Part shown: piece after piece, positions 4,218-62,201 of the stretch
Layout of the letters: every line of letters begins with the position of its first letter
Numbering within the stretch: the first letter of the stretch is position 1
NCBI GenBank assembly: GCA_038849525.1
Contig: JAWCMS010000001.1
Coordinates: 296,222 to 360,221, forward strand
Source: Candidatus Pacearchaeota archaeon
GTDB taxonomy: Archaea; Nanobdellota; Nanobdellia; Pacearchaeales; JAHJTO01
DNA: 64,000 nucleotides
Reading direction: 5' to 3'
The notes under the pieces: model-generated
Told to the model about the DNA's origin: nothing
Seen by the model: the letters and a program-made list of their open reading frames with translations, nothing else
The model's database searches: none
Translations under genes and position numbers: made by a program

Positions 4218-4253
4218 TTTTTTGTTATTTTTCTAATTTGCTAAATACTTTAA

Positions 4254-4326
4254 CGCCTCAGGTTGGACTCGAACCAACGACCCACTGATTAACAGTCAGT
4301 TGCTCTACCTGCTGAGCTACTGAGGC
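4254..4326 (-). tRNA. tRNA-Asn(GTT)
   Basis: GCCTCAG..AGCTCAG..GGTAGAGC, stem CTGAC/GTCAG-type arm around loop CTGTTAA, T-arm GTTGG TTCGAGT CCAAC; 73 nt, no CCA. Confidence 0.97.
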
Positions 4327-4405: not shown

Positions 4406-5218
4406 TTAAATTTTTACTCTATCTTTATAGAATATAGCACGGTTAATTTCTTCTTTTTTTATGCCTTTTGTAAAAAAGTTTTTAATTTTTGCAAAGAATC
4501 TTGGATCTTTATACTCTTCACCTATCAATGCACCAGCAAGTTTTCTATATTCTATTCCTATACTGCTTTTAGGGGCATATAAAGAAACAGGTATTGTTTC
4601 TGAAAGAGCTTTAAGCACTTTAACATCATCTTTTAATACAGCAAGAACAGGAACTCCTGCTAATTCTTCGATATCCTCTATTGAAAGTTCAAAGTCCATA
4701 TTTCTTTTTTTGTTTAAAATCAAACCTAAAATAGGTGTATTTTTTGATTTTGCAAGTTTTACTGCACGAATAGTGCAACTTAATGTTGGATAATCTGGAC
4801 TTGTTACTACAAGTAACTCCTCGCTTGCAATAATCACAGAAAGCATTTCTGCATTTAAAGTAGGAGCCGAATCAAGAAAAATAATATCATAATTATTCTT
4901 TATTTCCTTCAATTTTTTTTTCAAAGCAAAGACATCAAACTTACCCGATGCATTAAGCGCTCCAGGAACAAAATGAAAACCAGAATCATGCACGTAAATT
5001 GCTTTTTCAAAGTCCGTTTTGCCTGAAATAATTTCATGCATTGTTGCCTGAGGTTTTACCAAACCAAAATGCAAAGCAAGATTTGGAGCAGAAAAATTTG
5101 CATCTACAAGCAAAACTTTCTTATTAAATTCTTTTGCTATTACTGCACCAAGATTTGTTGTTACAGTAGTTTTACCTACACCACCTTTGATAGAAATTAT
5201 ACCAATAACCTTACCCAT
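4406..5218 (-). CDS. minD: MinD/ParA family ATPase (archaeal MinD-like), copy 1
   Basis: Deviant Walker A SIKGGVGKTT, LVDANF..PNL, DSAP, VT.PD. Confidence 0.9.
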   Translation of the reverse strand: MGKVIGIISIKGGVGKTTVTTNLGAVIAKEFNKKVLLVDANFSAPNLALHFGLVKPQATMHEIISGKTDFEKAIYVHDSGFHFVPGALNASGKFDVFALKKKLKEIKNNYDIIFLDSAPTLNAEMLSVIIASEELLVVTSPDYPTLSCTIRAVKLAKSKNTPILGLILNKKRNMDFELSIEDIEELAGVPVLAVLKDDVKVLKALSETIPVSLYAPKSSIGIEYRKLAGALIGEEYKDPRFFAKIKNFFTKGIKKEEINRAIFYKDRVKI

Positions 5219-6976: not shown

Positions 6977-9900
6977 CTATAATAAAGTACTCGCTTCTGC
7001 TATTGTTTTGCTTTTTTCTTGAAGCTTAAGTTTTAAAGTCAGATTTTTTTCTTTTGCAAGCCTGTTTGAAAGCTCATATTTTTGTGCTATGAATAACTTG
7101 CCATTTTTCGCAATAGTGTAAGGGCCGAGATAGTCCATCGCAAGAATGTTTTTATCTTTATTTATGGTGAATTCAATGTTAACCTTCTTTTCATCCTGAT
7201 TTTCATTGTCATAGCCTATGAATATGTCTCTTAAGTTACTGCCCTTGTTTTTTGAAATTACGAAAAATTTGTCATATGTTATCTCTATAGGCATTATATA
7301 TTCCAGTATAATAGTGTTATTCTCAATTATCTCTATTTTTATTTTCTGCTCCTTTTCCTTGAAGGCGGGAGTCGTCATTTCTATAGGAATATTAAGCTCT
7401 TCTCCCGGCATAATTTTGTCATAGTGTAGAGGCTGAAGATTCCATGTAATACTTTTATAATCAACTTTATCTTTTATACTTATTCCCCCAATTACCTTTG
7501 ATATTCCCCATCCTATTTTAGGATATTGGTGTATTTCTTGCGGCATGCAATCTGGTTTAGGAGTCTCTATTTTTATATCAACATTTGTTAACTGTCTATT
7601 CAAATTGTTTTTAAGTATTATAACTGTGTTTACCTTTTCAAGAACAGGGAGTATCATTGCTTTTGGAGCGCTTAATGAAACAATTTCATTTCCTATTGTT
7701 GCATAACCTTCAAGAGGAGTTATAGGTTGGGGAGCAGGAAAAATCTCTACATATAATATGCATGGCTGTGATTCAGCAGGCTTTCCATCCAAAGTTGTGC
7801 AATTATTCAAATCTATGCAATTTCTTGTTTGTGTGTTATTAATACATTTACTCCATTCCGAACACTGCCAATTTGGAATGCATTTTTTTCTATCATACTT
7901 GATTTGAGTATATTCTAAAACAGTTAAAGTCACATTGTTTGAATATGCGATATCTTCAGAGTCATTTGCTGTAAATACGACATATTCTGTTCCTGTCCAG
8001 TCTGAAGGTTTGGAAAAGCTTACATTACCATTTGAATTTATAGAAACAGTTATATTTACTGTTCCAGTTGAAGCAAAAGTTAATAAGTCCCTATCAACAT
8101 CACTGAAATAATCATACAAATTAAATACATCTGTCTTGTTTTGGTTTGAGTACCATGATTGATCAGGAATCGTTCCTGAGAATTGAGGAGGGGAATTTGA
8201 AATTGTTCTTGTTGTGTTTACAGCATTTCCTGAGAAATTGTGCTCGTCTGTTGGAGTCTGTTCGCATGTTATAACATCATTTTTGATGCAGTTTAAAGTG
8301 CTGCAGTTGAATGTACTTGCTGTCTGTCCTGAAATCCAGACAGAATTCTTGAACCATCTATAGCTTGAAGTTACAGAATCAGAATCAGAATCCAAATAAG
8401 TTGCTGAGCAAGTCAAGACATCATTTATGTAAGCTGTTAAAGGAGTTATTGACGCAGTCAAAATCGAAGGCCTATGATTAACTTCAAAAATTCCTGACGA
8501 AGTGCCGGAGCACAATCCAGAGTCATCGCATATAGCAATGTAGTATACATTTGTTGTATTGTCAGATTCTAAGGCGGTATAATTGCAGCTGATAGGGTCA
8601 TCTGATGAGTTAATCTTTGAGCAGAATGTTTTTTCTGAGCAGCCAGCAGCTGTTATTGTTGATGTATTACAGACATACAAGGAGATATTTTCATTGGGCT
8701 GATCTAAATCTATCCAGTCCACTGTAAATGTTATATCTTCACCAACATTTTTTGGGGAAGTTGAATTTGAATTTGCTGAGTAACTTACAATGGAGGGATT
8801 ACTTCCACCTATTATTTCCGTAGTAGAGTTTACCGCATTTCCAAAATCATAGCCATCTTTAGGAGTAACTTCGCACATCCATACCTCATTATCATTTGTA
8901 TAAGTGTTTGAGATTGCTTTAGTAGTCAAGCTTGGCTGGAGTATGTAATCTTTAAACCATTTAAATGTTGTTTCTGATTCTGGATCATTGTCAGCATCTG
9001 AATATGTGTAGTTGCAGTATAAATCATCTGTTGTTATAGGGTTGTCTGGCTTTATGTCAACATTACTTATTGTAGGAGGAGTATTGGCAATCGTTGTATT
9101 CCAAATGTCTGTCTGATTATAATTGCCAACAGAGTCATTAAACCACCAATACCATCTTATTGTCTGACCGCGTGTTGCTGTTATTGTTTTTGTTTTAGTT
9201 ATTTCATTACTGTTTGTCCATAAACCAGATTCATTTACAAATCCTGTTCCATTGTCATATGAAAATATATAAGATCCGGGATTTGCATCGTTTAGAGTTA
9301 TATTGAAATAAACTATATCATTATATTTTGTTGATGCATTTGCATTTGTTTTATTGTTTGTCCAGTATGGTGCTATAGAATCTATAAAGAATGTTACATA
9401 AGCGGTGTTTATTGTACCTGCAGAATTGTTCGTGAAAGCATAAAGAGTATTTGTACCTTCATTAAAAGTTATATAAGTTTCTGTGATGTAAGTTTGATTT
9501 GTTCCATTCCAGTTGAACCACGTATATTCTCCACTTGACGAAATATTGACAAGCAAAATTTTGTTTGTGTAGGTTAAGTTCGAAGGAGATATTATATCGA
9601 TTGAAGGGACTGTTGTGTCAACTGAAAATGTTACTGTTGCATTGGCAATATTATTCACTGAGTCATTTGCATATGCTTTTATTGTATGGCTTCCATCTGC
9701 AAAATAATAATTTATTGCTTCAGAATAAGTAAGATTCGTTGTTCCATTATTCCACCAAATATAAATTCCATCAGATGAGATATTCACAAGTATTGTATTG
9801 TTATTATATGTTTTATTTATTGGCGAAATAAATAAGATTGAGGGCGGAATAGTGTCTTTAAAGAAAGTTACTGATGAATAATTTAAATTTCCAGCAGAAT

Positions 9901-12900
9901 CATTTGCATAAACAATCCAAGTATTACTTCCTTCTGCTGATGTCATACCAGTAATATTTTGGCCGCAAATTACTGTTGTATTTGTTACGCCTAAATTTGT
10001 TGAATACCAGCATGCTTGGAGATTTATATCTGAGACAGTATAATTTAGTTCATTTACATTATAATTGTAGGATATATTTTGAGGATAAGTTATCTGAATA
10101 TGTGGGGCTATAGAATCTATAAAAAATGTTACATTAGTAAAATTTGTATTCCCAGATGTATCATTAGTATAAGCATAAAGAGTATTTGTACCTTCATTAA
10201 AAGTTATATAAGTTTCTGTGATGTAAGTTTGATTTGTTCCATTCCAGTTGAACCATATTTTATCTACGGCAACATTATCAGTTACAGAAATATTAACGAG
10301 CAATATCTTGTTATTATAATTTGTGTTTATAGGACTTATAATATAAATTTCTGGGTAAATATTGTCTACAGAAATATTTGCTGTATCATTTGTTGTTAGG
10401 GTTTGAAAGCCTGACGCTGAGCATGTGACATTCCAGTCAAATATTCCTGGCGAAGAAAAGCTTCTATTGTATTCATAATATGTCGATGTTGTATTGTAAG
10501 TCATTGTGTCTGTTAAATCAAAAAATCTGACTGTGCAGTTTGCTCCTGTTATTGGTTGGCCATTATTTTTTCTTGAATAATTAACAAAGAATTTTGTCTG
10601 CTGATTTTTGTATTTTATTTTATCAGCATAAGGCATTCCTGTATCTGTTTCGTCCCATATTATCATCTGGGAATTTCCTTGCGTGACATAAGAAGTAAAA
10701 TGTGTCACATTAAAACTTAAAATTCCATTAATATTGTCATAATAATTTATTATACACTCTGTTTCTGAACATATTTCATTATCTTTATAAATCAAAGGCT
10801 CTGCATCCCATGTCAGGTTTCTCATTATTATTGTTGCCGATGAATTAAATGAAGAATGCATATTTTCAGTTAAGATTGTAACATTGTTATTTTCAAGAAT
10901 AACATTTAATGTAAAGTTTTGTCCAATAGCATTAATGCAGTTATGCCATATAATCATATCTGTTAGAGGATTGTCTAAAATTGCAGTTGAATTGCAAACA
11001 TTACTCAAGTCAGGGACAGCTGACCAGTTTGTTGTGTTTCCACTAAATATGGCTGGATTGTAAGAAGGAACTGCCGAAACATTTACTGTGAAGTACCTTG
11101 TTAAGCTTGCGTTTGTGTTTGTTGAAATGTCTGTAGCGCTGCAGCTCCAATTGTAGTTTCCATTCACAAGATTTAATGAAAAGGATGTTTGATTGTTTAA
11201 TCCAGAGACAGAGTTTGTTTGATTTAATATGCCATTCAAAATTAAGGATATACTCGCAAGTCCCTTATCATCAGCAGCAGAACAATTAAATTCAACAAAA
11301 CCATCGCCATCAACGGCATTATTATTAGGCGATAATAATGTTACTGAAAAAGGAGGCTCATCTTCATTTACATTTACATAATAGGTTTCATATGATGTTG
11401 AGTAGTTTTGTGTTTCTATATAGATACAGGTTATATTAAATAAGCCTGCTGAGCTGAATGTTGTCAAGTTGCCTATAGGCGAATTTCCAGAATTAATTAA
11501 GCTTTCATTGTTGTAGAGAGCAAGCATTCCTAAAGAGGGGGTAATTAGTGAACAATTAATGTTAATAGTCATGCCTTGGTTTATTGTCATGTTGTCTTTT
11601 GTGCTATTTATGGTTAAATTAACTTGAGATGGTGCTTTGTTTATAAATAAATAATAAGTCAATCCAGTTTCATTGTCAGTATAATTTGCATTTCCTGTTG
11701 AATTAACTTTGTAAGCGTAGGTTCCTGCCGCCAAGCTAATATTTATTCCACTTTCATTAGTAACATCATTTCCGTTTCTGTAAAGTTTATGCATTCCTGA
11801 AAGCGAATAAGCTGTTGCGTTAACTTGCTGAGGATATGTTATTGAGATGTTTTGATTTAATAATCCATTTAATCTTAAATTTACAACATCATTTGCTTTT
11901 GAAATATTTGCAAATCTTGATAAAGTAAATGCAGTATAATTCTGATTTTCTGGAACATACAATGTGAAATTATAATATCCTACTTCAAGATTTTGATATT
12001 GGTTGTTAAGATTTGTTATATCTTCACCATTTCTGTATAAAATGGCCGTTGATGAATTTGTGAATGATGCGTTAACTTGAGATGGATAAATTAAGTTAAT
12101 GTCTCCTACTGTTCCATTCAGTAGTAATGTTCCAGTATTTGCTCCTTTAGTCACATTTGCGAAAAGAGTCTTAGACATGCTTGTATAATTTTGATTTCCA
12201 GTAATATTATAGTCGAATCTGTAATAACCTACTCCTAATGTGTAATTTGCTCCATTTGTTATTAAAGTCCCATCTCTGTAAATGGCTAAAGTTCCACCAA
12301 CATTTGTTGCAGATGCGTTGATTTGCTGAGGATATTGCACAGTTAGGTTTTGAGTCAAACCATTCAAGTAATAATTCAAGGTTGGTGTTGCTTGGTTTAT
12401 TGTAAATGTCCAAGATGCTGAGGAATTGCCTTGATTTGAAGTGTCATTAGCCCAGCTTTTCCAGTAAAAAGTTCCTGCAGGTAGTGTTGCATTATAATGA
12501 TAAACACCGTTTGTAGCTGTTCCAGAAATTATGTTCATAGTGTAATTTATTGTATTGCCTGAATAATTGCTTTCTAAATAGACTTTATCAATTCCTATAT
12601 CATCTTGCCAAGTTATATTAAATAAGCTGAAAGTTGTTGGGGAGTAGGTTGTCACAATGCTTGTTTGATTATTGCTCCAGTAAGGATTGTTATCATAAAT
12701 CGAGATCGGAATAATTACATTTGACTGAACATTATCTTCCCATTGGATATAAGCATTTGTTGTTCTTGTATCTGTTACATTCAAGCATATTTGCACACCT
12801 ACCCTTTCACCTGGATATATGGTAGTCAAACTTCCTGATGGCAAGTTATAATTCCATAAAACAGCGGTTCCGGGAGAGCTCCCATCAGCGCATACATCAG

Positions 12901-15900
12901 CTGCTGATTGAGAAGTTAAGGCTATGTCATATCTGTCAGTGGAATTTAATTTAAATATATACGCTAGCAGTCTTACATCAACAGAAGTTGTGCTTCCACA
13001 ATAACCATAGACAGTAAAATTCCATGTTCCATTTACCATTACTGGAACAGTCCAATTAGGAGAAGTCCAGTTAAAATCAAAACATCTAAAGCCTAGAGAA
13101 CTCACGGAAACTCCGGGAGATGTAACTATGGAAGTATCATTTGTTGTTAATTTCAACTGCTTGTAGTTAGTAAATTGAGAATCGGACTCATTATGCATAT
13201 AATATCTTGTATTATTAACAATCCATTCCTGAACTCCCTGGATTTGTAATACGATATTCCTTTCTTCACTCATTCCAGTATTTCCAAATTCATCGGAACA
13301 TATTATTTTCCATGTATAATTTCCATTGTAGAGAAGATTTTCACTGAATGTCTGGTTTGTGTTTTTAGTTATCGTTTCGTCTTGGAAGCTTATTGCATAA
13401 CCTCCATTATTAGCTGAAAGAATAAAGAAACAGTCTTTTATTCCAGAATCATCTGAAACATTATAAGTAAATGTAGGGCTTAAAGTGTTTAGTTCAATAT
13501 ATCCATTTGTAGGAGAAACTAAAGAGATGACAGGGTTAATGTCATCTTCAAGAGTCTTTGCTGTATTTGTTACATTAGTATTATTTATATTTCCTACATT
13601 GTCTTTTGTCCAAATTTTTATTGTATGCTCTGAATTTACTGATAATCCTGTTGCATTATAGTAATTATTTGAAGTGTTAGCGACATTAACATTGTCAATA
13701 AAAATAATATTCGAATTGAAATCAACATCAGCAGGATTTGTCCAGTTCCAGTAAATCCATGTATAACCTGAAGATTGATTATTAAGATTTGTTACTGAAG
13801 ATGGAGGGGTTGTGTCAGTACTGCCTGCTGGCGCGAATGCGGCTGCAACATGAACAAGCCTGTTTGCTGACTGACTCCATCCTATAGTTGTTAATCCTGC
13901 TGTTGAAACCTCCTTTGTCGAGCCTGCTCCTTGCGATGTTGAGTTCCCTGAATCCCATCTTTCTATCTGTCCTGAATTTGCTGTAAATCCTCCAAGATTT
14001 CCTGAAACAACAACATCGATAATCCAAGAATCAGATGTCAGGGTTGTTATGCTTGTGTTAATTGATGTGCAGCCTGTGCAGTATTTTGTTGTGTAGTTTT
14101 CAGGGGCCTGTTGTTTTGCGTTGTATATTGAAATTCCTCCTGCATTACTTTCAGTCACATTTCCTGCATAATTAACTTTAATGCTCGCTGTTCCGACTGG
14201 AGGGTTTAGCAGATACCATAAACTTGCGCATGCATCTGCTCCTGAATCGTCAAAATCATAGCCTGCAATTTTAGTTAATGAAATATTGTTATATGTGACA
14301 GAAGTTGCTCTGCAATTAGCTGCAGCACTGCCTGATGCTGATGATTCAGCTGTTGCCCCTACAATCAAAATTCTATTGCTATTGTTTCCTATAGTATGAG
14401 AAAAAGTAAGGTTTCCTGCTCCTTTTGCAGAGCTGCTTGAATCGAATTGTATTTTATCTTCACCGTATAATTCGTAAGTTATGTTTAGATAAGGTCTGTT
14501 TCCTGTGCTGTGATGATTTTCTCTGTCTTCTATATCAAGCCAAGGCCCTGGATCCCAGTTTCCAAATCCTAACGTTTCATAGTATAGATAATATGCAGTA
14601 TTGGCAGGATAATCTGCATCGCAAATCCTTACAGTTGAAAAATTATTTCCTAATGCTAAGTCTGTTGAAATTACATTTTTTATGTCTATACAACCCCATC
14701 CAGGTACGTTGATATCTGACCAAGTTTCTGATGTCGTTTCATTTGTTAAGGGCATTTCATTATATTCTTCAGGAGTTATAGATTCTGTCCATGTTTGATT
14801 ATCGACACGCCAGAAAATTGCGTCTGTGTCAAATGTTCCGTCTTTTTGTACAAAGTAAACACACATTAATGCACTTGTTATGCTTGCTGTTTTTGGTATT
14901 TTTGAGATATCCCATCTTATCTGCATTGATTCATTATCTTCCCAAGAACCAGCTATCGCTAAAATGTCAGCAACATTGTAGCTATAATTTAGCAGTTCTG
15001 AATAAGCAGGGTCTTCCAAAGTTAAAGTAAAAGTGTATTCTTGTCCAGGAGTTATATCCATTATCTTTATCCATTCCCCATAACAAACTTGTTGAGAAAA
15101 ATTCCAGTCTTTGCATTTATACAATTCAGAGCCTTGAGCAGTGACTGTTATATTTGCAAATGTAAATTTAGGCATTATTGTAGGGTCAATTGCATAAGAC
15201 TGTATGAAGCCTGAAATAGAAACATTTGTGTCAATATCAATTAAATTGTCTATTGAATCATTTATGTTAATTTCATTAATTATGATTTCTTTTATTTCAC
15301 CTTCTTCGGGCTTTATTTTTATATTATACTTTCCTTTTTGGACTTTTTCTCTTTTGGCTTTTCCTGAAATTTCTTTTTTTACTTCCTTGCTTACTGGCTT
15401 CTCGAATTCAATTGTAACATCTATCGGATTTCCATTAGCATCTTTAACTTCAGCATTAACATCATATTCAGGAATTTCTCCTATTCCTATAACTTGTGAA
15501 TGCTTTCCGATCTTTATTTCAAAATATTTTGAAGGATTCCAGTTGTTTATTGTCAATGAAATATTTTCGTTTGCGGAAGATTCATTTTTGCTTAAGAAAT
15601 AGTCCAAATAATCTTCGCTGATTATTGCTATCGGCTGGATTTCATTAGATTCGTGGTGGAATGATACATTGAGAATTCCAGACTCGTTGTCATAATTTAT
15701 TGAATCTATAACTGCATTTATTTTAGAGTCTTCTTCTATTATCTCATATTCTACTATAAAGTTTGTTTCTTCGGTGATATTTGTTATGTTAATTGTGGTC
15801 AAATTTTCTATTTGGATTATTTCTTCTGTAAGATTCTCTTTTATTATGTTTTCTTCAGGAATCTCCTCTTTTTTCAAAGTGTAAATTATTTTCTGAAGCT

Positions 15901-16597
15901 TTAGCTCTGTTCCAGAATCAGTTTCAATTATAATTTTGTATTTTGTTTCGTTTAATTCAACAGAACATGTTTCAATGCAGACATCATCAAATTTTATTTT
16001 TTCTTTTTCTTCTTCTGTAATGTTTTCTTCTGCAGTTGCATTTTCTTCAGGCTGTTCTGGCTGCTCTTTTTGAGCTTCTTCTGTAGGGGCTTCTGGAGTT
16101 TCTGAAACTTTTTCTGGTTGTGATTCTTCTTTTGTTTTCTTTTCATTTGCTTTTTCAGCTTCTTTGATTTCCTTTTCAGCTTCTTCCTGCTCTTCTTCTG
16201 TAGGAGCTATTGAAAGTCCTGTTAAGATACTTGCTAAACTTTCTCCTTGGCTGCTTTCATAAATTAATTTCTTTTCTTGAGAAGTTTCAATGTAAATTTT
16301 CGCATTTCCATTTCCTGATAATTCTCCTGATACTCTTAATGAAGTTATTGTTCCAGGGTTTTCTGGAGTCCATTGATATTCGATTGATTTGTCTGTCTTA
16401 ATGTTTAAAACATCAATAAAAGTGTCTTTGCTTGTAACATAGCCAGTTATGTAAGGCCTCATTAAAAAGAATAGTATTACTGTCAAAGCTAATGTAAAAC
16501 CGATTAGCAGAATGCTTTGAGGAATTTTTATTTTTTCTTTTTTTGTTAATTGCTCTGCTAAGTAAATTTCATTCTCTTTTTTTTGTTCTTCATTCAT
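6977..16597 (-). CDS. 3206-aa giant cell-surface protein: N-terminal TM anchor, DNRLRE-like, FN3-like and many Ig-like modules, HF-T motif module, TSP1-like module
   Basis: Uninterrupted 9.6-kb ORF; TM at about aa 28-47; IRWDISKIP..ASITSA; DTTPPSSVTNL FN3 start; repeated D..P.I.I.SP.N.TY units; dense N-x-S/T sequons; no C-terminal TM. Confidence 0.9.
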   Translation of the reverse strand: MNEEQKKENEIYLAEQLTKKEKIKIPQSILLIGFTLALTVILFFLMRPYITGYVTSKDTFIDVLNIKTDKSIEYQWTPENPGTITSLRVSGELSGNGNAKIYIETSQEKKLIYESSQGESLASILTGLSIAPTEEEQEEAEKEIKEAEKANEKKTKEESQPEKVSETPEAPTEEAQKEQPEQPEENATAEENITEEEKEKIKFDDVCIETCSVELNETKYKIIIETDSGTELKLQKIIYTLKKEEIPEENIIKENLTEEIIQIENLTTINITNITEETNFIVEYEIIEEDSKINAVIDSINYDNESGILNVSFHHESNEIQPIAIISEDYLDYFLSKNESSANENISLTINNWNPSKYFEIKIGKHSQVIGIGEIPEYDVNAEVKDANGNPIDVTIEFEKPVSKEVKKEISGKAKREKVQKGKYNIKIKPEEGEIKEIIINEININDSIDNLIDIDTNVSISGFIQSYAIDPTIMPKFTFANITVTAQGSELYKCKDWNFSQQVCYGEWIKIMDITPGQEYTFTLTLEDPAYSELLNYSYNVADILAIAGSWEDNESMQIRWDISKIPKTASITSALMCVYFVQKDGTFDTDAIFWRVDNQTWTESITPEEYNEMPLTNETTSETWSDINVPGWGCIDIKNVISTDLALGNNFSTVRICDADYPANTAYYLYYETLGFGNWDPGPWLDIEDRENHHSTGNRPYLNITYELYGEDKIQFDSSSSAKGAGNLTFSHTIGNNSNRILIVGATAESSASGSAAANCRATSVTYNNISLTKIAGYDFDDSGADACASLWYLLNPPVGTASIKVNYAGNVTESNAGGISIYNAKQQAPENYTTKYCTGCTSINTSITTLTSDSWIIDVVVSGNLGGFTANSGQIERWDSGNSTSQGAGSTKEVSTAGLTTIGWSQSANRLVHVAAAFAPAGSTDTTPPSSVTNLNNQSSGYTWIYWNWTNPADVDFNSNIIFIDNVNVANTSNNYYNATGLSVNSEHTIKIWTKDNVGNINNTNVTNTAKTLEDDINPVISLVSPTNGYIELNTLSPTFTYNVSDDSGIKDCFFILSANNGGYAISFQDETITKNTNQTFSENLLYNGNYTWKIICSDEFGNTGMSEERNIVLQIQGVQEWIVNNTRYYMHNESDSQFTNYKQLKLTTNDTSIVTSPGVSVSSLGFRCFDFNWTSPNWTVPVMVNGTWNFTVYGYCGSTTSVDVRLLAYIFKLNSTDRYDIALTSQSAADVCADGSSPGTAVLWNYNLPSGSLTTIYPGERVGVQICLNVTDTRTTNAYIQWEDNVQSNVIIPISIYDNNPYWSNNQTSIVTTYSPTTFSLFNITWQDDIGIDKVYLESNYSGNTINYTMNIISGTATNGVYHYNATLPAGTFYWKSWANDTSNQGNSSASWTFTINQATPTLNYYLNGLTQNLTVQYPQQINASATNVGGTLAIYRDGTLITNGANYTLGVGYYRFDYNITGNQNYTSMSKTLFANVTKGANTGTLLLNGTVGDINLIYPSQVNASFTNSSTAILYRNGEDITNLNNQYQNLEVGYYNFTLYVPENQNYTAFTLSRFANISKANDVVNLRLNGLLNQNISITYPQQVNATAYSLSGMHKLYRNGNDVTNESGINISLAAGTYAYKVNSTGNANYTDNETGLTYYLFINKAPSQVNLTINSTKDNMTINQGMTININCSLITPSLGMLALYNNESLINSGNSPIGNLTTFSSAGLFNITCIYIETQNYSTSYETYYVNVNEDEPPFSVTLLSPNNNAVDGDGFVEFNCSAADDKGLASISLILNGILNQTNSVSGLNNQTSFSLNLVNGNYNWSCSATDISTNTNASLTRYFTVNVSAVPSYNPAIFSGNTTNWSAVPDLSNVCNSTAILDNPLTDMIIWHNCINAIGQNFTLNVILENNNVTILTENMHSSFNSSATIIMRNLTWDAEPLIYKDNEICSETECIINYYDNINGILSFNVTHFTSYVTQGNSQMIIWDETDTGMPYADKIKYKNQQTKFFVNYSRKNNGQPITGANCTVRFFDLTDTMTYNTTSTYYEYNRSFSSPGIFDWNVTCSASGFQTLTTNDTANISVDNIYPEIYIISPINTNYNNKILLVNISVTDNVAVDKIWFNWNGTNQTYITETYITFNEGTNTLYAYTNDTSGNTNFTNVTFFIDSIAPHIQITYPQNISYNYNVNELNYTVSDINLQACWYSTNLGVTNTTVICGQNITGMTSAEGSNTWIVYANDSAGNLNYSSVTFFKDTIPPSILFISPINKTYNNNTILVNISSDGIYIWWNNGTTNLTYSEAINYYFADGSHTIKAYANDSVNNIANATVTFSVDTTVPSIDIISPSNLTYTNKILLVNISSSGEYTWFNWNGTNQTYITETYITFNEGTNTLYAFTNNSAGTINTAYVTFFIDSIAPYWTNNKTNANASTKYNDIVYFNITLNDANPGSYIFSYDNGTGFVNESGLWTNSNEITKTKTITATRGQTIRWYWWFNDSVGNYNQTDIWNTTIANTPPTISNVDIKPDNPITTDDLYCNYTYSDADNDPESETTFKWFKDYILQPSLTTKAISNTYTNDNEVWMCEVTPKDGYDFGNAVNSTTEIIGGSNPSIVSYSANSNSTSPKNVGEDITFTVDWIDLDQPNENISLYVCNTSTITAAGCSEKTFCSKINSSDDPISCNYTALESDNTTNVYYIAICDDSGLCSGTSSGIFEVNHRPSILTASITPLTAYINDVLTCSATYLDSDSDSVTSSYRWFKNSVWISGQTASTFNCSTLNCIKNDVITCEQTPTDEHNFSGNAVNTTRTISNSPPQFSGTIPDQSWYSNQNKTDVFNLYDYFSDVDRDLLTFASTGTVNITVSINSNGNVSFSKPSDWTGTEYVVFTANDSEDIAYSNNVTLTVLEYTQIKYDRKKCIPNWQCSEWSKCINNTQTRNCIDLNNCTTLDGKPAESQPCILYVEIFPAPQPITPLEGYATIGNEIVSLSAPKAMILPVLEKVNTVIILKNNLNRQLTNVDIKIETPKPDCMPQEIHQYPKIGWGISKVIGGISIKDKVDYKSITWNLQPLHYDKIMPGEELNIPIEMTTPAFKEKEQKIKIEIIENNTIILEYIMPIEITYDKFFVISKNKGSNLRDIFIGYDNENQDEKKVNIEFTINKDKNILAMDYLGPYTIAKNGKLFIAQKYELSNRLAKEKNLTLKLKLQEKSKTIAEASTLL
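9436..9520. repeat. 85-bp perfect direct repeat, copy 1, inside the giant gene
   Basis: Identical to 10171-10255; encodes WFNWNGTNQTYITETYITFNEGTNTLYA. Confidence 0.95.
10171..10255. repeat. 85-bp perfect direct repeat, copy 2
   Basis: Identical to 9436-9520 (735 bp apart). Confidence 0.95.
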
Positions 16598-27902: not shown

Positions 27903-29375
27903 ATGTCAAGCAGAAAAAAATTTTATATCACAACTCCTATTTACTACACAAATGATGTTCCTCATATAGGGCATTCTTACACTACTATTATTGCCGATAT
28001 TCTTGCAAGATATCACAGATTACTTGGAGAGGATGTTTTCTTTCTTACAGGAACAGATGAGCATGGAATAAAAATACAGAGGATAGCTGAGAAAAAAAAT
28101 AAAAAACCGAAACAGTTTGTGGATGAGATAGTTAATGAATTTAAGAAAGCGTGGAAGACATTAAATATTGAGTATGACAATTTTATCAGAACAACTGATG
28201 AGAAGCATATCAAAATTGTGCAGGACATTCTTCAAAAGCTTTATGATAAGAAGATGATATACAAAGGAAAGTATGAGGCATATTACTGCACAGGATGCGA
28301 GCAGTATAAGACTTCATCTGAGTTAGTAAATGGGACTTGCCCTTTGCATAATACAACTGTGGAAGTTAGGAGCGAAGAAGCTTATTTATTTAAATTAAGC
28401 AAATTCCAAAAAGAATTGAGAAAACTGATTGAAAACAATGAGTATAAAATCCTTCCTATTCAAAGAAAAAACGAAATGCTTTCGTTTCTGATAAGAGAAG
28501 ATTTGCAGGATATTTCTATAAGCAGGCCGAAATCAGAAGTTTATTGGGGTATAGAGCTTCCTTTCGACAAAAATCATACATGTTATGTGTGGATAGATGC
28601 ATTCTTGAATTACATTTCAGGATTGAACTATCCTTCTGAACAATTTAGAAAATACTGGCCTGCGGATATTCAATTAATGTCAAAGGATATCTTAAGAGTC
28701 CATTCGACAATATGGCCCAGTATTTTACTTTCCATAAATGAAAAACTGCCAAAAATGCTCTATATTCATGGTTATTTTACTGTAAATGGGCAGAAAATGT
28801 CAAAGTCACTTGGAAATGCGATAGATCCTATAAAATTGTCAGAGAAGTATGGTAGCGATGCTGTAAGATATTTTCTTATGAGACATATTCCTTTAGGAGA
28901 AGATGGAGATTTTTCAGAAGATGCATTAAAAGAAAGATATAATTCTGAATTAGCAAACAAACTTGGAAATTTAGTCTTAAGAGTTGCTGGAATGGCAAAA
29001 GGAAAAATTCCAAAATCCTCAATTGATGCTGATTTGGCATCTAATCTTAAGCTGACCGAAATTTATTCTCATATGGATAATGTCGCTCTGGACAAAGCAT
29101 TAGAAAAGATTTTTGGATTTATAGACAAATGTAATGAGTATATTCAAGAAAAACAACCATGGAAATTAGAAGGAAAAGAAAAAGAAAAGGTTCTGTACAA
29201 TCTAATTGATTCGATACGTATTATTTCAATTCTTTTATATCCATTTATGCCTGAAACATCTAAAAAAATAAACAAACAATTCAATTTTCCAAAACCTTCA
29301 ATTGAGAATGCTGTATTCGGAAAAACAAAAGAGGGAAAAATTAAGAAATTAGGAGTATTATTTGAAAAATTGTAA
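27903..29375 (+). CDS. metG: Methionyl-tRNA synthetase, catalytic and anticodon domains (bacterial MetRS1-like, single zinc knuckle)
   Basis: FYITTPIYY.ND.PHIGH.YTT, C..C..CPLH knuckle, YVWIDA..NY, KMSKSLGN. Confidence 0.95.
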   Translation: MSSRKKFYITTPIYYTNDVPHIGHSYTTIIADILARYHRLLGEDVFFLTGTDEHGIKIQRIAEKKNKKPKQFVDEIVNEFKKAWKTLNIEYDNFIRTTDEKHIKIVQDILQKLYDKKMIYKGKYEAYYCTGCEQYKTSSELVNGTCPLHNTTVEVRSEEAYLFKLSKFQKELRKLIENNEYKILPIQRKNEMLSFLIREDLQDISISRPKSEVYWGIELPFDKNHTCYVWIDAFLNYISGLNYPSEQFRKYWPADIQLMSKDILRVHSTIWPSILLSINEKLPKMLYIHGYFTVNGQKMSKSLGNAIDPIKLSEKYGSDAVRYFLMRHIPLGEDGDFSEDALKERYNSELANKLGNLVLRVAGMAKGKIPKSSIDADLASNLKLTEIYSHMDNVALDKALEKIFGFIDKCNEYIQEKQPWKLEGKEKEKVLYNLIDSIRIISILLYPFMPETSKKINKQFNFPKPSIENAVFGKTKEGKIKKLGVLFEKL

Positions 29376-29379
29376 TAAA

Positions 29380-29553
29380 ATGGACAATATCGAGAAAATT
29401 GTTAGTTATACATCTTGTGCAGTATTAGTGGGTGCTGCAAGTTATGTAATGGGTTGTATTATATACAGTTTTTTCAGTAAAAATGATAATAAATATAAAA
29501 AGGAAGAAAATAAAAAAATTAATAATTACACTCTAAATAAAAAAAATGACTGA
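29380..29553 (+). CDS. Small single-TM hypothetical protein
   Basis: Hydrophobic core SYTSCAVLVGAASYVMGCIIYSFF; start could be TTG 29362 or ATG 29380. Confidence 0.5.
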   Translation: MDNIEKIVSYTSCAVLVGAASYVMGCIIYSFFSKNDNKYKKEENKKINNYTLNKKND

Positions 29554-29881
29554 GACATTAAGATTCGATGAATGGAAAAAATTAGACTTAAGAGTAGGAA
29601 AAATTATTTCTGTAGAAGAACATCCAAATGCAGACAAACTTTATATCCTTGAAATTGATCTTGGAACAGAAAAAAGAAAGCTTGTAGCAGGATTAAAACA
29701 ATATTACAAACCTTCTGAATTAAAAGGAAAATTATGTATCATAATTGCTAATCTTGAACCTACAACAATTCGTGGTATAAAATCAGAAGGGATGATTCTT
29801 GCAGCAGTCTCTGAAGATAAGACTGAGGTCAGATTGATAAGGCCTGACAAAGATATAAATGTAGGAACAAAGATAGCTTAA
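29546..29881 (+). CDS. Stand-alone tRNA-binding OB-fold protein (MetRS C-terminal domain/Trbp111-like)
   Basis: KLDLRVGKI..VEEHPNADKLY.L.IDLG.E.R..VAG, NLEP..IRG..SEGMILA. Confidence 0.92.
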   Translation: MTETLRFDEWKKLDLRVGKIISVEEHPNADKLYILEIDLGTEKRKLVAGLKQYYKPSELKGKLCIIIANLEPTTIRGIKSEGMILAAVSEDKTEVRLIRPDKDINVGTKIA

Positions 29882-29882
29882 T

Positions 29883-30296
29883 CTATTTTTTATAATATTT
29901 CGCGCATTCTAACATACAGTTACGCACATCTTTATATTCTTTAGAAAAACTGCTATAAAATATTTTATCTTTAGAATTAAATCCTATATGCCATTCTTTA
30001 TTTCCTGCGATGATTTCTAGTTTAGTAGGATAGACTTTCAATTCACATTTTTCTTTATTCACATCAAAAAATATCTTTGGATTAATAGGTTTTTTTCTAT
30101 TTGAAACACTAAAATAAAACACCCCTTTTGCACTTGAACCAAAATGAATAGTCGTGTCTTTATTAGTAATTATAAGTTTATTTCCTATCATTTTTATTTC
30201 ATATCCTAGTTTATAGAGTTTTTTTCTTGCTTTATAATCAAGAAATGCTTCGTGCAACAAATCTTCTTCTTCGCTAATTTTTTTTATTAAACTCAT
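29883..30296 (-). CDS. Hypothetical protein
   Basis: 137-aa ORF filling the gap; no family recognised. Confidence 0.55.
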   Translation of the reverse strand: MSLIKKISEEEDLLHEAFLDYKARKKLYKLGYEIKMIGNKLIITNKDTTIHFGSSAKGVFYFSVSNRKKPINPKIFFDVNKEKCELKVYPTKLEIIAGNKEWHIGFNSKDKIFYSSFSKEYKDVRNCMLECAKYYKK

Positions 30297-30386
30297 TTTA
30301 TTCTTTTTTATTAAGTGTAGTTAGATTTTAATTTTATTTATAAATTTTGTTGACTAAAATCAAGTAGTGTCATTTATTCTAAATAA

Positions 30387-30459
30387 TGGGGCTGCTGGGA
30401 TTCGAACCCAGGTCGCACGCTCCCTAAGCGCGTATACTACCAGGCTATACTACAGCCCC
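30387..30459 (-). tRNA. tRNA-Pro with anticodon AGG
   Basis: GGGGCTG/CAGCCCC acceptor, A73, D-loop AGCCTGG, anticodon arm CGCGC TTAGGGA GCGTG, 4-nt variable loop, CTGGG TTCGAAT CCCAG. Confidence 0.92.
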
Positions 30460-30460
30460 A

Positions 30461-30531
30461 TGGGCGTAACAGGAATCGAACCTGTCTCCTATCGACGTGA
30501 ACGATATGTCCTACCAATGAACGATACGCCC
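30461..30531 (-). tRNA. tRNA-Val(CAC)
   Basis: GGGCGTA/TACGCCC acceptor, perfect arm TATCG TTCACGT CGATA, ACAGG TTCGATT CCTGT; 1 nt upstream of tRNA-Pro. Confidence 0.9.
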
Positions 30532-30570
30532 ATTTTCATTTAAAATTTCTAAGAATTGAAGGTTAAAAAA

Positions 30571-30726
30571 TTATTCTTCTAGTTCCTCTTCTTCATATTT
30601 ACTTCTACTTTTGATTATGGGCTCTTCAGAATATTTACTTTTTTGTAATATTTTTGGCTCTGGTTCTGCTTCAGGAGGTAGTTTTTGTATTTTCTTTTTT
30701 TTTATTCTCTTTTTTTGTTTTTTCAT
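30571..30726 (-). CDS. 51-aa small protein with basic N-terminus and acidic C-terminus (not in ORF track)
   Basis: MKKQKKRIKKKKIQKLPPEAEPEPKILQKSKYSEEPIIKSRSKYEEEELEE; co-oriented, fills the gap. Confidence 0.55.
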   Translation of the reverse strand: MKKQKKRIKKKKIQKLPPEAEPEPKILQKSKYSEEPIIKSRSKYEEEELEE

Positions 30727-30746: not shown

Positions 30747-31292
30747 TTATCTATTAATTTTTTTCATTATTTTATCGAGTTGCTTGAATAAATATTTTTT
30801 GTCTTTTGAATTATCAACTTTATAGTCGGCCATGGAGAATGTCTTTTTAAGATTAAAGAATCTTTCTTCTTGTTTTTCTTCTTTTCTGAATATTTCAAAA
30901 GTCTTTGGAAAATCTGTTCTTCTTCTTGCTTTCATTCTTTTAAATCTTATTTCTGGTTTTGCATCTATAAGAATTAGAATAGCTTTTATTTTTTGTTTTG
31001 CAAGTTTTGCTTGATTAGGTTTTCTTATTCCATCAAGAATTACTGGTTTTTTACTTTGTTTGGCTTTTTCTAAGGCATGTTCGATTACAAAATCTGTCTT
31101 ATAAATCTTAGAATATTTTTCACCAATCTTTTCAAGATTTTTGCGAGTTGGTTTTAATTTTTCTTTTTTTGCCAATGCACGAACAATATTTCCCATATTT
31201 ATTATTTTATAATTGTATTTTCGAGCGATATATTTAGCAGCAACACCTTTTCCGCTTCCTGCTGGGCCAAATATTCCAAGATTTTTTTTCAT
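30747..31292 (-). CDS. P-loop nucleotide kinase (UPF0200/dephospho-CoA kinase-like)
   Basis: FGPAGSGKG, MG..VR, ILDGIR, IRFKR..AR.R.D, ADY.VDN. Confidence 0.8.
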   Translation of the reverse strand: MKKNLGIFGPAGSGKGVAAKYIARKYNYKIINMGNIVRALAKKEKLKPTRKNLEKIGEKYSKIYKTDFVIEHALEKAKQSKKPVILDGIRKPNQAKLAKQKIKAILILIDAKPEIRFKRMKARRRTDFPKTFEIFRKEEKQEERFFNLKKTFSMADYKVDNSKDKKYLFKQLDKIMKKINR

Positions 31293-62099: not shown

Positions 62100-62201
62100 C
62101 GGGCCCGATGGGATTTGAACCCACGACACCCTGATAACTTTGTCACAGGAAAACCTGCGAATTAAGAGTCAGGTGCTCTATCCAGGCTGAGCTACGGGCC
62201 C
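62100..62201 (-). tRNA. tRNA-Lys(CTT) with 27-nt intron at 37/38 (intron 62136-62162)
   Basis: GGGCCCG/CGGGCCC acceptor, CCTGA CT CTT A^A TCAGG after intron removal; intron hairpin GCAGG-TTTT-CCTGT. Confidence 0.93.

Follow-up and report, generated by a model that had tools for sequence, protein, structure and literature searches.

The 64,000-nucleotide stretch of DNA analysed here (positions 296,222 to 360,221 of contig JAWCMS010000001.1, from a Candidatus Pacearchaeota archaeon; hereafter the window) carries on its minus strand a gene for tRNA-Pro with the anticodon AGG, that is, with adenosine encoded at the wobble position (A34). It was called as tRNA-Pro (agg) by ARAGORN at 30386-30460 (-), and Rfam matched it to RF00005 at 30387-30459 (-) with a score of 59.5 bits (E=2.5e-10; gathering score 29). 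The gene, its partner tRNA and the kinase gene that served as syntenic anchor are arranged as follows.

30381..30386, minus strand: T-rich tract TTATTT directly 3' of discriminator A73, probable archaeal oligo-T terminator (sequence)
30387..30459, minus strand: tRNA-Pro, anticodon AGG (A34), intronless, CCA not encoded (ARAGORN, Rfam, sequence, AGG orthologues in eight syntenic loci)
30425, minus strand: wobble position 34, A in the RNA (T on the plus strand), linear position 35 of the tRNA (sequence; same in the X1 and X2 contigs and in the divergent X5 strain, below)
30460, minus strand: 1-nt spacer (U) between tRNA-Val and tRNA-Pro (sequence)
30461..30531, minus strand: tRNA-Val(CAC), upstream partner in a probable dicistronic tRNA unit (ARAGORN; Rfam, 56.6 bits)
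30561..30573, minus strand: A/T-rich TATA-like element ATAATTTTTTAAC, putative archaeal promoter, about 36 nt upstream of G1 of tRNA-Val (sequence)
30747..31292, minus strand: P-loop kinase (ADK/AAA_17/AAA_18), 181 aa, syntenic anchor (open reading frame (ORF), Pfam matches, homologue loci)

In the tRNA-Pro(AGG), whose sequence is GGGGCTGTAGTATAGCCTGGTAGTATACGCGCTTAGGGAGCGTGCGACCTGGGTTCGAATCCCAGCAGCCCCA, the acceptor stem is 7 bp long (GGGGCUG/CAGCCCC) and includes G1:C72, and the discriminator is A73. The anticodon stem has 5 bp (CGCGC/GCGUG), the anticodon loop has 7 nt (U32 U33 A34 G35 G36 G37 A38, UUAGGGA), and the T-arm is CUGGG-UUCGAAU-CCCAG. A first, sequence-only reading of the window had described it as a well-formed archaeal tRNA-Pro with the loop TTAGGGA and with A34 encoded by the T at 30425, and on this ARAGORN, Rfam and the sequence agree. 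That reading also held that the tRNA-Ile of the window keeps GAT, as ARAGORN found. ARAGORN called five tRNAs in total; besides tRNA-Pro the window has Ile(GAT), Asn(GTT), Gly(CCC), Val(CAC) and Lys(CTT), all with ordinary anticodons, and neither ARAGORN nor Rfam gave a second A34 tRNA in the 64 kb. The proline identity set for recognition by archaeal prolyl-tRNA synthetase (ProRS) is known from studies of the M. jannaschii enzyme. Its elements (G35, G36, G37, A73 and G1:C72) are all present in the window tRNA and are invariant in the 32 AGG tRNAs aligned below. As ProRS recognizes its tRNA without position 34, charging should be unaffected by A34.

The corresponding loci of relatives were gathered through the neighbouring kinase protein, without regard to the anticodon of any tRNA beside it. 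Three routes were used: tblastn against loci found by the pattern scan described below, a metagenome scan with a 3-sequence alignment, and a homologue search followed by contig look-ups. The tRNAs at these loci were called by ARAGORN, by Rfam and by eye, since several have long introns. The kinase homologues sampled were 33-76% identical in amino-acid sequence. Ten loci, including the window, had a tRNA-Pro adjacent to the kinase, and its anticodon was AGG in nine, CGG in one and GGG in none (kinase identity to the window, then the tRNA-Pro):

window, 100%: AGG
L081, 72%: AGG, 55-nt intron
L035, 70%: AGG
L034, 69%: AGG, 44-nt intron
L085, 66%: AGG, 52-nt intron
L086, 63%: AGG
L087, 63%: AGG, 44-nt intron
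L031, 51%: AGG
L037, 45%: CGG
L014, 33%: AGG, intron in the D-arm

Examining the same locus in relatives, as the sequence-only reading had proposed, thus gave AGG at eight syntenic loci besides the window. The pairing of Val(CAC) with tRNA-Pro recurs in L034, L035, L037, L081, L086 and L087, and L034 and L035 also have TATA-like elements at a comparable distance. At several further loci the tRNAs have left the vicinity of the kinase; in L040 (37%), TGG and GGG tRNAs lie 1.8 kb from it. The exons of the L085 gene are 97% identical to the window tRNA, the sole difference being one compensatory T-stem pair, and the tRNAs of the other loci are 71-82% identical to it. Loop positions 32/38 vary (U/A, C/C, C/U) while A34 is constant. 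The Val(CAC)-Pro(CGG) pair of L037 was considered as an orthologue, which would imply a switch from C34 to A34, and was rejected, its tRNA-Pro body being only 71% identical to the window tRNA.

The introns of the AGG orthologues, 44-55 nt long and placed at 37/38, are found in L034:1890-2010, L081:4353-4481, L085:3550-3674 and L087:3941-4063; the window, L035, L086 and L031 have none at this site. Those of L081 and L085 have a common gaaaccaaggtttc-type hairpin. ARAGORN missed all four of these genes. Long introns therefore keep four of the nine syntenic AGG genes from standard tRNA finders, so that surveys undercount genes of this kind. The gene of L014 (2520-2614, minus strand) has a ~21-nt insert in its D-arm and was mis-called tRNA-Trp(cca) by ARAGORN; with the insert removed, it is close to the tRNA of L001.

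The distribution of the AGG type was assessed with an exact pattern (TTAGGGA, a gap of 12-13 nt, GGTTCRANTCC, 7 nt, CCCA), scanned against 185,579 GTDB species genomes, one genome per prokaryotic species. There were 32 matches. One lay in Actinoplanes, where there is no tRNA; the other 31 came from further DPANN archaea with an AGG tRNA-Pro of this type, labelled Woese-, Pace-, Nano-, Aenigmat-, Micr- or Iainarchaeota or Huberarchaeum. As the pattern is narrow, and would miss the AGG genes of L034, L035, L081, L085, L086 and L087, this number is a lower bound. In an alignment of 32 AGG tRNAs, 97.5% of cells were in standard pairs and 14 of 21 pairs had changed on both sides (127 cells). In 500 shuffles the observed values of pairing and covariation were never reached, and no slid register came close. 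This argues that the AGG tRNAs are functional and evolve under cloverleaf constraint with AGG kept. Most rows of the alignment were chosen by the pattern for their AGG, so it is the syntenic sample that gives evidence for A34 independent of the anticodon.

The locus is also present in hot-spring metagenome runs, whose assembled contigs bear on read support at 30425, another check proposed in the sequence-only reading. In the run X1 (SRR27730043) a 25,638-nt Logan contig with a k-mer depth of 13.8 is identical to the window across 30200-30700, and in X2 a 408-nt Logan contig is identical across 30423-30700; both runs are from a single study, and the source sample may be X1. A 356-nt contig from a different study (X5) covers 30299-30647 and represents a strain that is ~94% identical. 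Across 30340-30600 this strain differs from the window by 6 substitutions and 1 indel, all of them in ~116 nt of flank, and there is no change in the 145 nt of tRNA-Val and tRNA-Pro. The T at 30425 is kept in the contigs of all three runs. The strain comparison indicates purifying selection on both tRNAs.

The same metagenomes contain contigs with tRNA-Pro(GGG) and tRNA-Pro(CGG), which differ from the window tRNA at 9 positions (~88% identity). Their flanks are different, and their depth in proportion to that of the window contig depends on the run (0.6 in X1, 1.7 in X2), which assigns them to another, related organism. Only these came up in a search of the Logan contigs, at 80-85% likeness, for the other Pro isoacceptors of the window genome, and none of its own was recovered. 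As this search also missed the UGG gene, which must exist, it is uninformative about GGG.

What the AGG tRNA is likely to decode can be judged from its partners. In L032, AGG, CGG and TGG tRNA-Pro genes lie within 8 kb, in L016 AGG lies beside CGG, and none of the AGG loci examined has a tRNA-Pro(GGG). These partner sets, together with the report on ARMAN-4/-5 discussed below, fit a role for AGG as the reader of CCU and CCC (CCY). In L032 the AGG gene (4249-4321) and the TGG gene (4528-4601) have the same sequence outside the anticodon arm, which suggests concerted evolution or a recent isoacceptor duplication.

Codon use in the window is strongly biased. In 52 long ORFs, 54% of the Pro codons are CCT, 36% CCA, 5.7% CCG and 4.7% CCC, a CCU:CCC ratio of ~12 to 1 at a G+C content of ~30%. 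Among the AGG loci as a group, G+C content is 24-45% and the pooled ratio of CCT to CCC is 3.7. The sequence-only reading had suggested superwobbling by A34, suited to frequent CCT codons. The abundance of CCT fits one half of this, but the term superwobble is overstated, as CCA and CCG are read weakly by such a tRNA (PMC11066159). Across the same ORFs the preferred third base is U in the Pro and Leu boxes (CTT, 61%) and A in those of Thr, Ala and Gly (>50%); the two U-preferring boxes are those for which A34 tRNAs have been reported in DPANN. This preference was not used as evidence, there being no matched control genomes of the GGG type.

The A34 of the window tRNA stands in a four-codon box with G or C at both other anticodon positions, and published decoding data for A34 in such a box show that U- and C-ending codons are read (PMC11066159). 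An orthogonal AGG tRNA in E. coli, whose A34 has no inosine modification, reassigns CCU at 12.9%, CCC at 10.3% and CCA/CCG at ~1% (PMC11066159). With a genomic G34A change in E. coli proL, Pro-tRNA(AGG) is unmodified and present at the wild-type level (bioRxiv 10.64898/2026.05.15.725136); as that preprint cites Chen 2002, Pro-tRNA(AGG) in Salmonella leaves fitness and elongation rate unchanged. AGG would then most likely fill the role of CCU/CCC reader that is normally held by GGG, with A34 unmodified.

The gene is real, its cloverleaf is conserved and the AGG anticodon has persisted over deep divergence. We consider it probable that the gene encodes a functional elongator tRNA-Pro with A34 that has become fixed in a sub-lineage of Pace-/Woesearchaeota-type DPANN and serves as the CCY reader, with A34 most likely unmodified; here expression, charging, codon range and lack of modification are what we infer. 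On this reading, tRNA-Pro(AGG) would be co-transcribed with tRNA-Val(CAC) from the A/T-rich promoter, cleavage by RNase P and RNase Z would free it, and CCA would be added enzymatically. ProRS would charge it through G35, G36, A73 and G1:C72, with position 34 uninvolved, and G37 would presumably be methylated to 1-methylguanosine (m1G37). A34 would form a Watson-Crick pair with the dominant codon CCU, and the rare CCC would be read by a tolerated A:C contact, aided by G:C pairing at both of the first two codon positions, leaving CCA and CCG to UGG and CGG isoacceptors encoded elsewhere. The change from G to A at position 34 may have been favoured by the AT-biased genome and tolerated since no box is more permissive for A34 than that of Pro.

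Several points weigh against this reading. The absence of GGG from this genome and the presence of UGG and CGG in it are presumed, with indirect support from the loci of relatives. AT mutation bias, and not selection for A, could account for the persistence of A34. The precedents for an unmodified A34 that reads CCC are bacterial, not archaeal. Within this genome the motif scans for deaminases covered the 64 kb of the window, which is part of a contig of at least 400 kb, so that a deaminase may lie elsewhere, and X6, the sole metatranscriptome of the study, gave no contig of RNA from the locus.

Deamination of A34 to inosine (IGG), by a deaminase either unrecognised or acquired laterally, with eukaryote-like decoding of CCU, CCC and CCA, is the alternative that survives best, though we judge it unlikely. 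It would agree with the conservation of A34 over deep divergence and with the fate of encoded A34 in other domains, where it nearly always becomes I34 (PMC11066159, PMC8007984), and the Leu(AAG) and Pro(AGG) pair of ARMAN-4/-5 has been compared to the eukaryotic strategy (PMC3239211). However, no A34-specific deaminase is known in archaea (PMC8007984), motif scans of the 64-kb window gave no motif of the cytidine deaminase (CDA) fold, and UGG is kept beside AGG in L032. Moreover, TadA of E. coli leaves tRNA-Pro(AGG) unmodified (PMC11066159; bioRxiv 10.64898/2026.05.15.725136), so that a standard acquired TadA would not suffice. A literature search on TadA in DPANN matched only an author's name and the Tad pilus ATPase, and no finding of this analysis supports the unknown A34 deaminase that the sequence-only reading had suggested.

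Genes of the CDA fold do exist in relatives, and one, P0046 of a close relative (L088), was considered as an A34 deaminase. This divergent 160-aa PF00383 gene (L088:9233-9715, minus strand) comes right after genes for methionyl-tRNA synthetase (MetRS), a 65-aa protein and a Trbp111-type tRNA_bind protein. It scores 23.7 bits against ComEB and 16.3 bits against TadA, both far under the cut-offs, and in the PDB it best matches a phage dCMP deaminase (4p9c). It has the ComEB-type GYN..C..C..HAE spacing with a long segment, as is typical of dCMP deaminases. Only 16 homologues were detectable, none of them on the 400-kb contig of the window. P0046 was rejected as a candidate for this activity, its architecture and best matches being of the dCMP-deaminase type and not TadA-like, and its homologues few.

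A wider form of the inosine proposal, in which Pace-/Woesearchaeota-type and further DPANN convert A34 of both tRNA-Pro(AGG) and the tRNA-Leu(AAG) reported in these lineages by a deaminase unrecognised in Archaea, seems to us slightly less credible again. If true, it would be the first wobble-inosine decoding in archaea, and I34 decoding of multiple substrates would have an origin either independent of or ancestral to eukaryotic ADAT. Another, non-inosine modification of A34 that tunes its pairing is decidedly improbable. Archaeal wobble bases are commonly modified and the modification repertoires of DPANN are essentially unstudied, but no enzyme or precedent is known for such a modification of A34 in cytosolic tRNAs, and an unmodified A34 tRNA is already functional in bacteria (PMC11066159).

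The remaining alternatives concern the gene itself. That it is decaying or unused, a pseudogene with a normal GGG tRNA elsewhere doing the work, is very unlikely. The cloverleaf is perfect and has every identity element, the X5 strain has no substitutions in the tRNA against diverged flanks, compensatory covariation among the 32 sequences is strong, the locus has been kept at 33-76% identity of the neighbouring protein, and some orthologues have kept introns.

Acquisition of tRNA-Pro(AGG) from viruses, mobile elements or a donor of eukaryote-like kind is scarcely more than conceivable. Eukaryotes do use tRNA-Pro(AGG), the pattern also matches 11 IMG/VR contigs, and in L087 the 3' end of tRNA-Pro(AGG) is repeated exactly over 17 nt (GAATCCCAGCAGCCCCA; L087:4133-4150) ~90 nt downstream of the gene, in what could be an integration (att-like) scar. 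The body of the tRNA is nevertheless of the archaeal type (G1G2G3...A73) and like that of other DPANN Pro isoacceptors, as the identity of the AGG and TGG bodies in L032 illustrates, and its synteny among core translation genes is conserved. None of the nine viral matches examined was a clean tRNA-Pro(AGG), whether by ARAGORN or by reading of the sequence. The viral loci (L068-L078) are phage contigs, mostly of ~100 kb and from one metagenome, with tRNA-like elements that have the TTAGGGA loop and a T-arm/acceptor 3' half and whose 5' halves are aberrant or interrupted. The element of L076 borders an array of 19 tRNAs, Arg(ACG) among them.

Finally, an error of sequencing or assembly, or a variant confined to this one assembly, which the sequence-only reading had allowed for, is refuted: AGG and GGG do differ by a single base and the GGG and CGG contigs of the same metagenomes are similar, but these come from another organism by their flanks and depth ratios, the X1 and X2 contigs are identical, the divergent X5 strain from an independent study retains A34, and AGG stands in eight syntenic orthologues.

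The surroundings of the functional tRNA-Pro(AGG) proposed here are those of an archaeal genome. Translation genes around it encode MetRS, a separate tRNA_bind protein, valyl-tRNA synthetase (ValRS), the nascent polypeptide-associated complex protein NAC, diphthamide synthase and an aRF1/Pelota-type protein; these, together with a tRNA intron of the bulge-helix-bulge (BHB) type, confirm the archaeal context. The intron, 27 nt long and at 37/38, is that of tRNA-Lys(CUU) (window 62100-62201, minus strand), a gene seen by Rfam and missed by ARAGORN. MetRS is split into a 490-aa core (27903-29375, plus strand) and a separate 111-aa Trbp111-like tRNA_bind gene (29546-29881, plus strand), an arrangement kept in relatives.

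Between the kinase and the tRNAs lies a 51-aa ORF (window 30571-30726, minus strand) with a basic N-terminus and an acidic C-terminus (MKKQKKRIKKKK...PPEAEPEP...YSEEP...EEEELEE); comparable small ORFs are found 3' of the kinase in L031, L033, L034, L035 and most Logan/JGI relatives, and Pfam gave no match. Genes of the dCMP-deaminase type (HAExNA...PCxxC; HAEMNAL...PCKIC) adjoin distant kinase homologues in L043, L050 and L059, which suggests that the 181-aa kinase family may act in (deoxy)nucleotide metabolism. Further away, the window has a giant 3206-aa ORF (6977-16597, minus strand) with a weak match in L029.

How do these observations compare with what is known? Reviews and surveys as late as 2026 describe archaea as having neither anticodons that start with A nor a wobble-adenosine deaminase (PMC8007984, PMC11066159), and the latest survey counted 3 A34 tRNAs among 10,517 archaeal tRNAs in 220 genomes (bioRxiv 10.64898/2026.05.15.725136). 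The premise of the sequence-only reading, that archaea essentially lack A34 tRNAs, matches these reviews but overlooked an exception: in ARMAN-4/-5, tRNA-Pro(AGG) and tRNA-Leu(AAG) are present and their G34 versions absent (Fujishima 2011, NAR 39:9695, PMC3239211). An A34 Pro tRNA in DPANN has thus been known since 2011 and is under-appreciated. New here are the Pace-/Woesearchaeota-type lineage, the anticodon-blind syntenic sample, the covariation, the selection seen at strain level and the intron polymorphism.

The locus contradicts current review statements on archaeal A34, and in part of the DPANN radiation tRNA-Pro(AGG) is a conserved and normal state, maintained through deep divergence, rearrangements and the gain or loss of introns. 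If A34 is bare, this would be a natural, clade-wide case of unmodified A34 decoding, with a bearing on why ANN anticodons are avoided elsewhere. If A34 is inosine, archaea possess an I34 system, with implications for how eukaryotic decoding arose.

The closest known case is ARMAN-4/-5, a Parvarchaeota-type DPANN host that likewise has A34 in place of G34 in the Pro box, and that has it in the Leu box as well. That report gives a single paragraph to two acid-mine genomes from a different DPANN lineage, in contrast to the hot-spring, Pace-/Woesearchaeota-type genome studied here, and conservation is now documented by synteny, covariation and 31 further species. From the canonical archaeal tRNA-Pro(GGG), whose cloverleaf, identity elements (G35, G36, G37, A73 and G1:C72) and presumed decoding role it has, the window tRNA differs in A34, so that CCU would be read by A:U and not by G:U wobble, and CCC by a non-standard A:C and not by G:C.

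Small AT-rich genomes elsewhere also tolerate a bare A34 in a four-codon box beside a U34 isoacceptor, as in Mycoplasma, where tRNA-Thr(AGU) is an unmodified-A34 family-box tRNA of a reduced genome (for related discussion see PMC3711424); that case is bacterial and concerns a different amino-acid box. The eukaryotic tRNA-Pro(AGG), converted to IGG by ADAT2/ADAT3, has the same encoded anticodon, and in eukaryotes the G34 isoacceptor is missing, but the window tRNA has an archaeal body, and no homologue of ADAT or TadA is known in archaea or was seen in the window. The best mechanistic model for the window gene is the unmodified tRNA(AGG) of bacteria (the G34A mutants and orthogonal tRNAs of Salmonella, E. 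coli proL-AGG and the M. jannaschii-derived system), where A34 stays unmodified in the Pro box and CCU is read about as well as CCC, at no measurable cost. Those systems are engineered or mutant, whereas the allele of the window is natural, archaeal and fixed in its clade.

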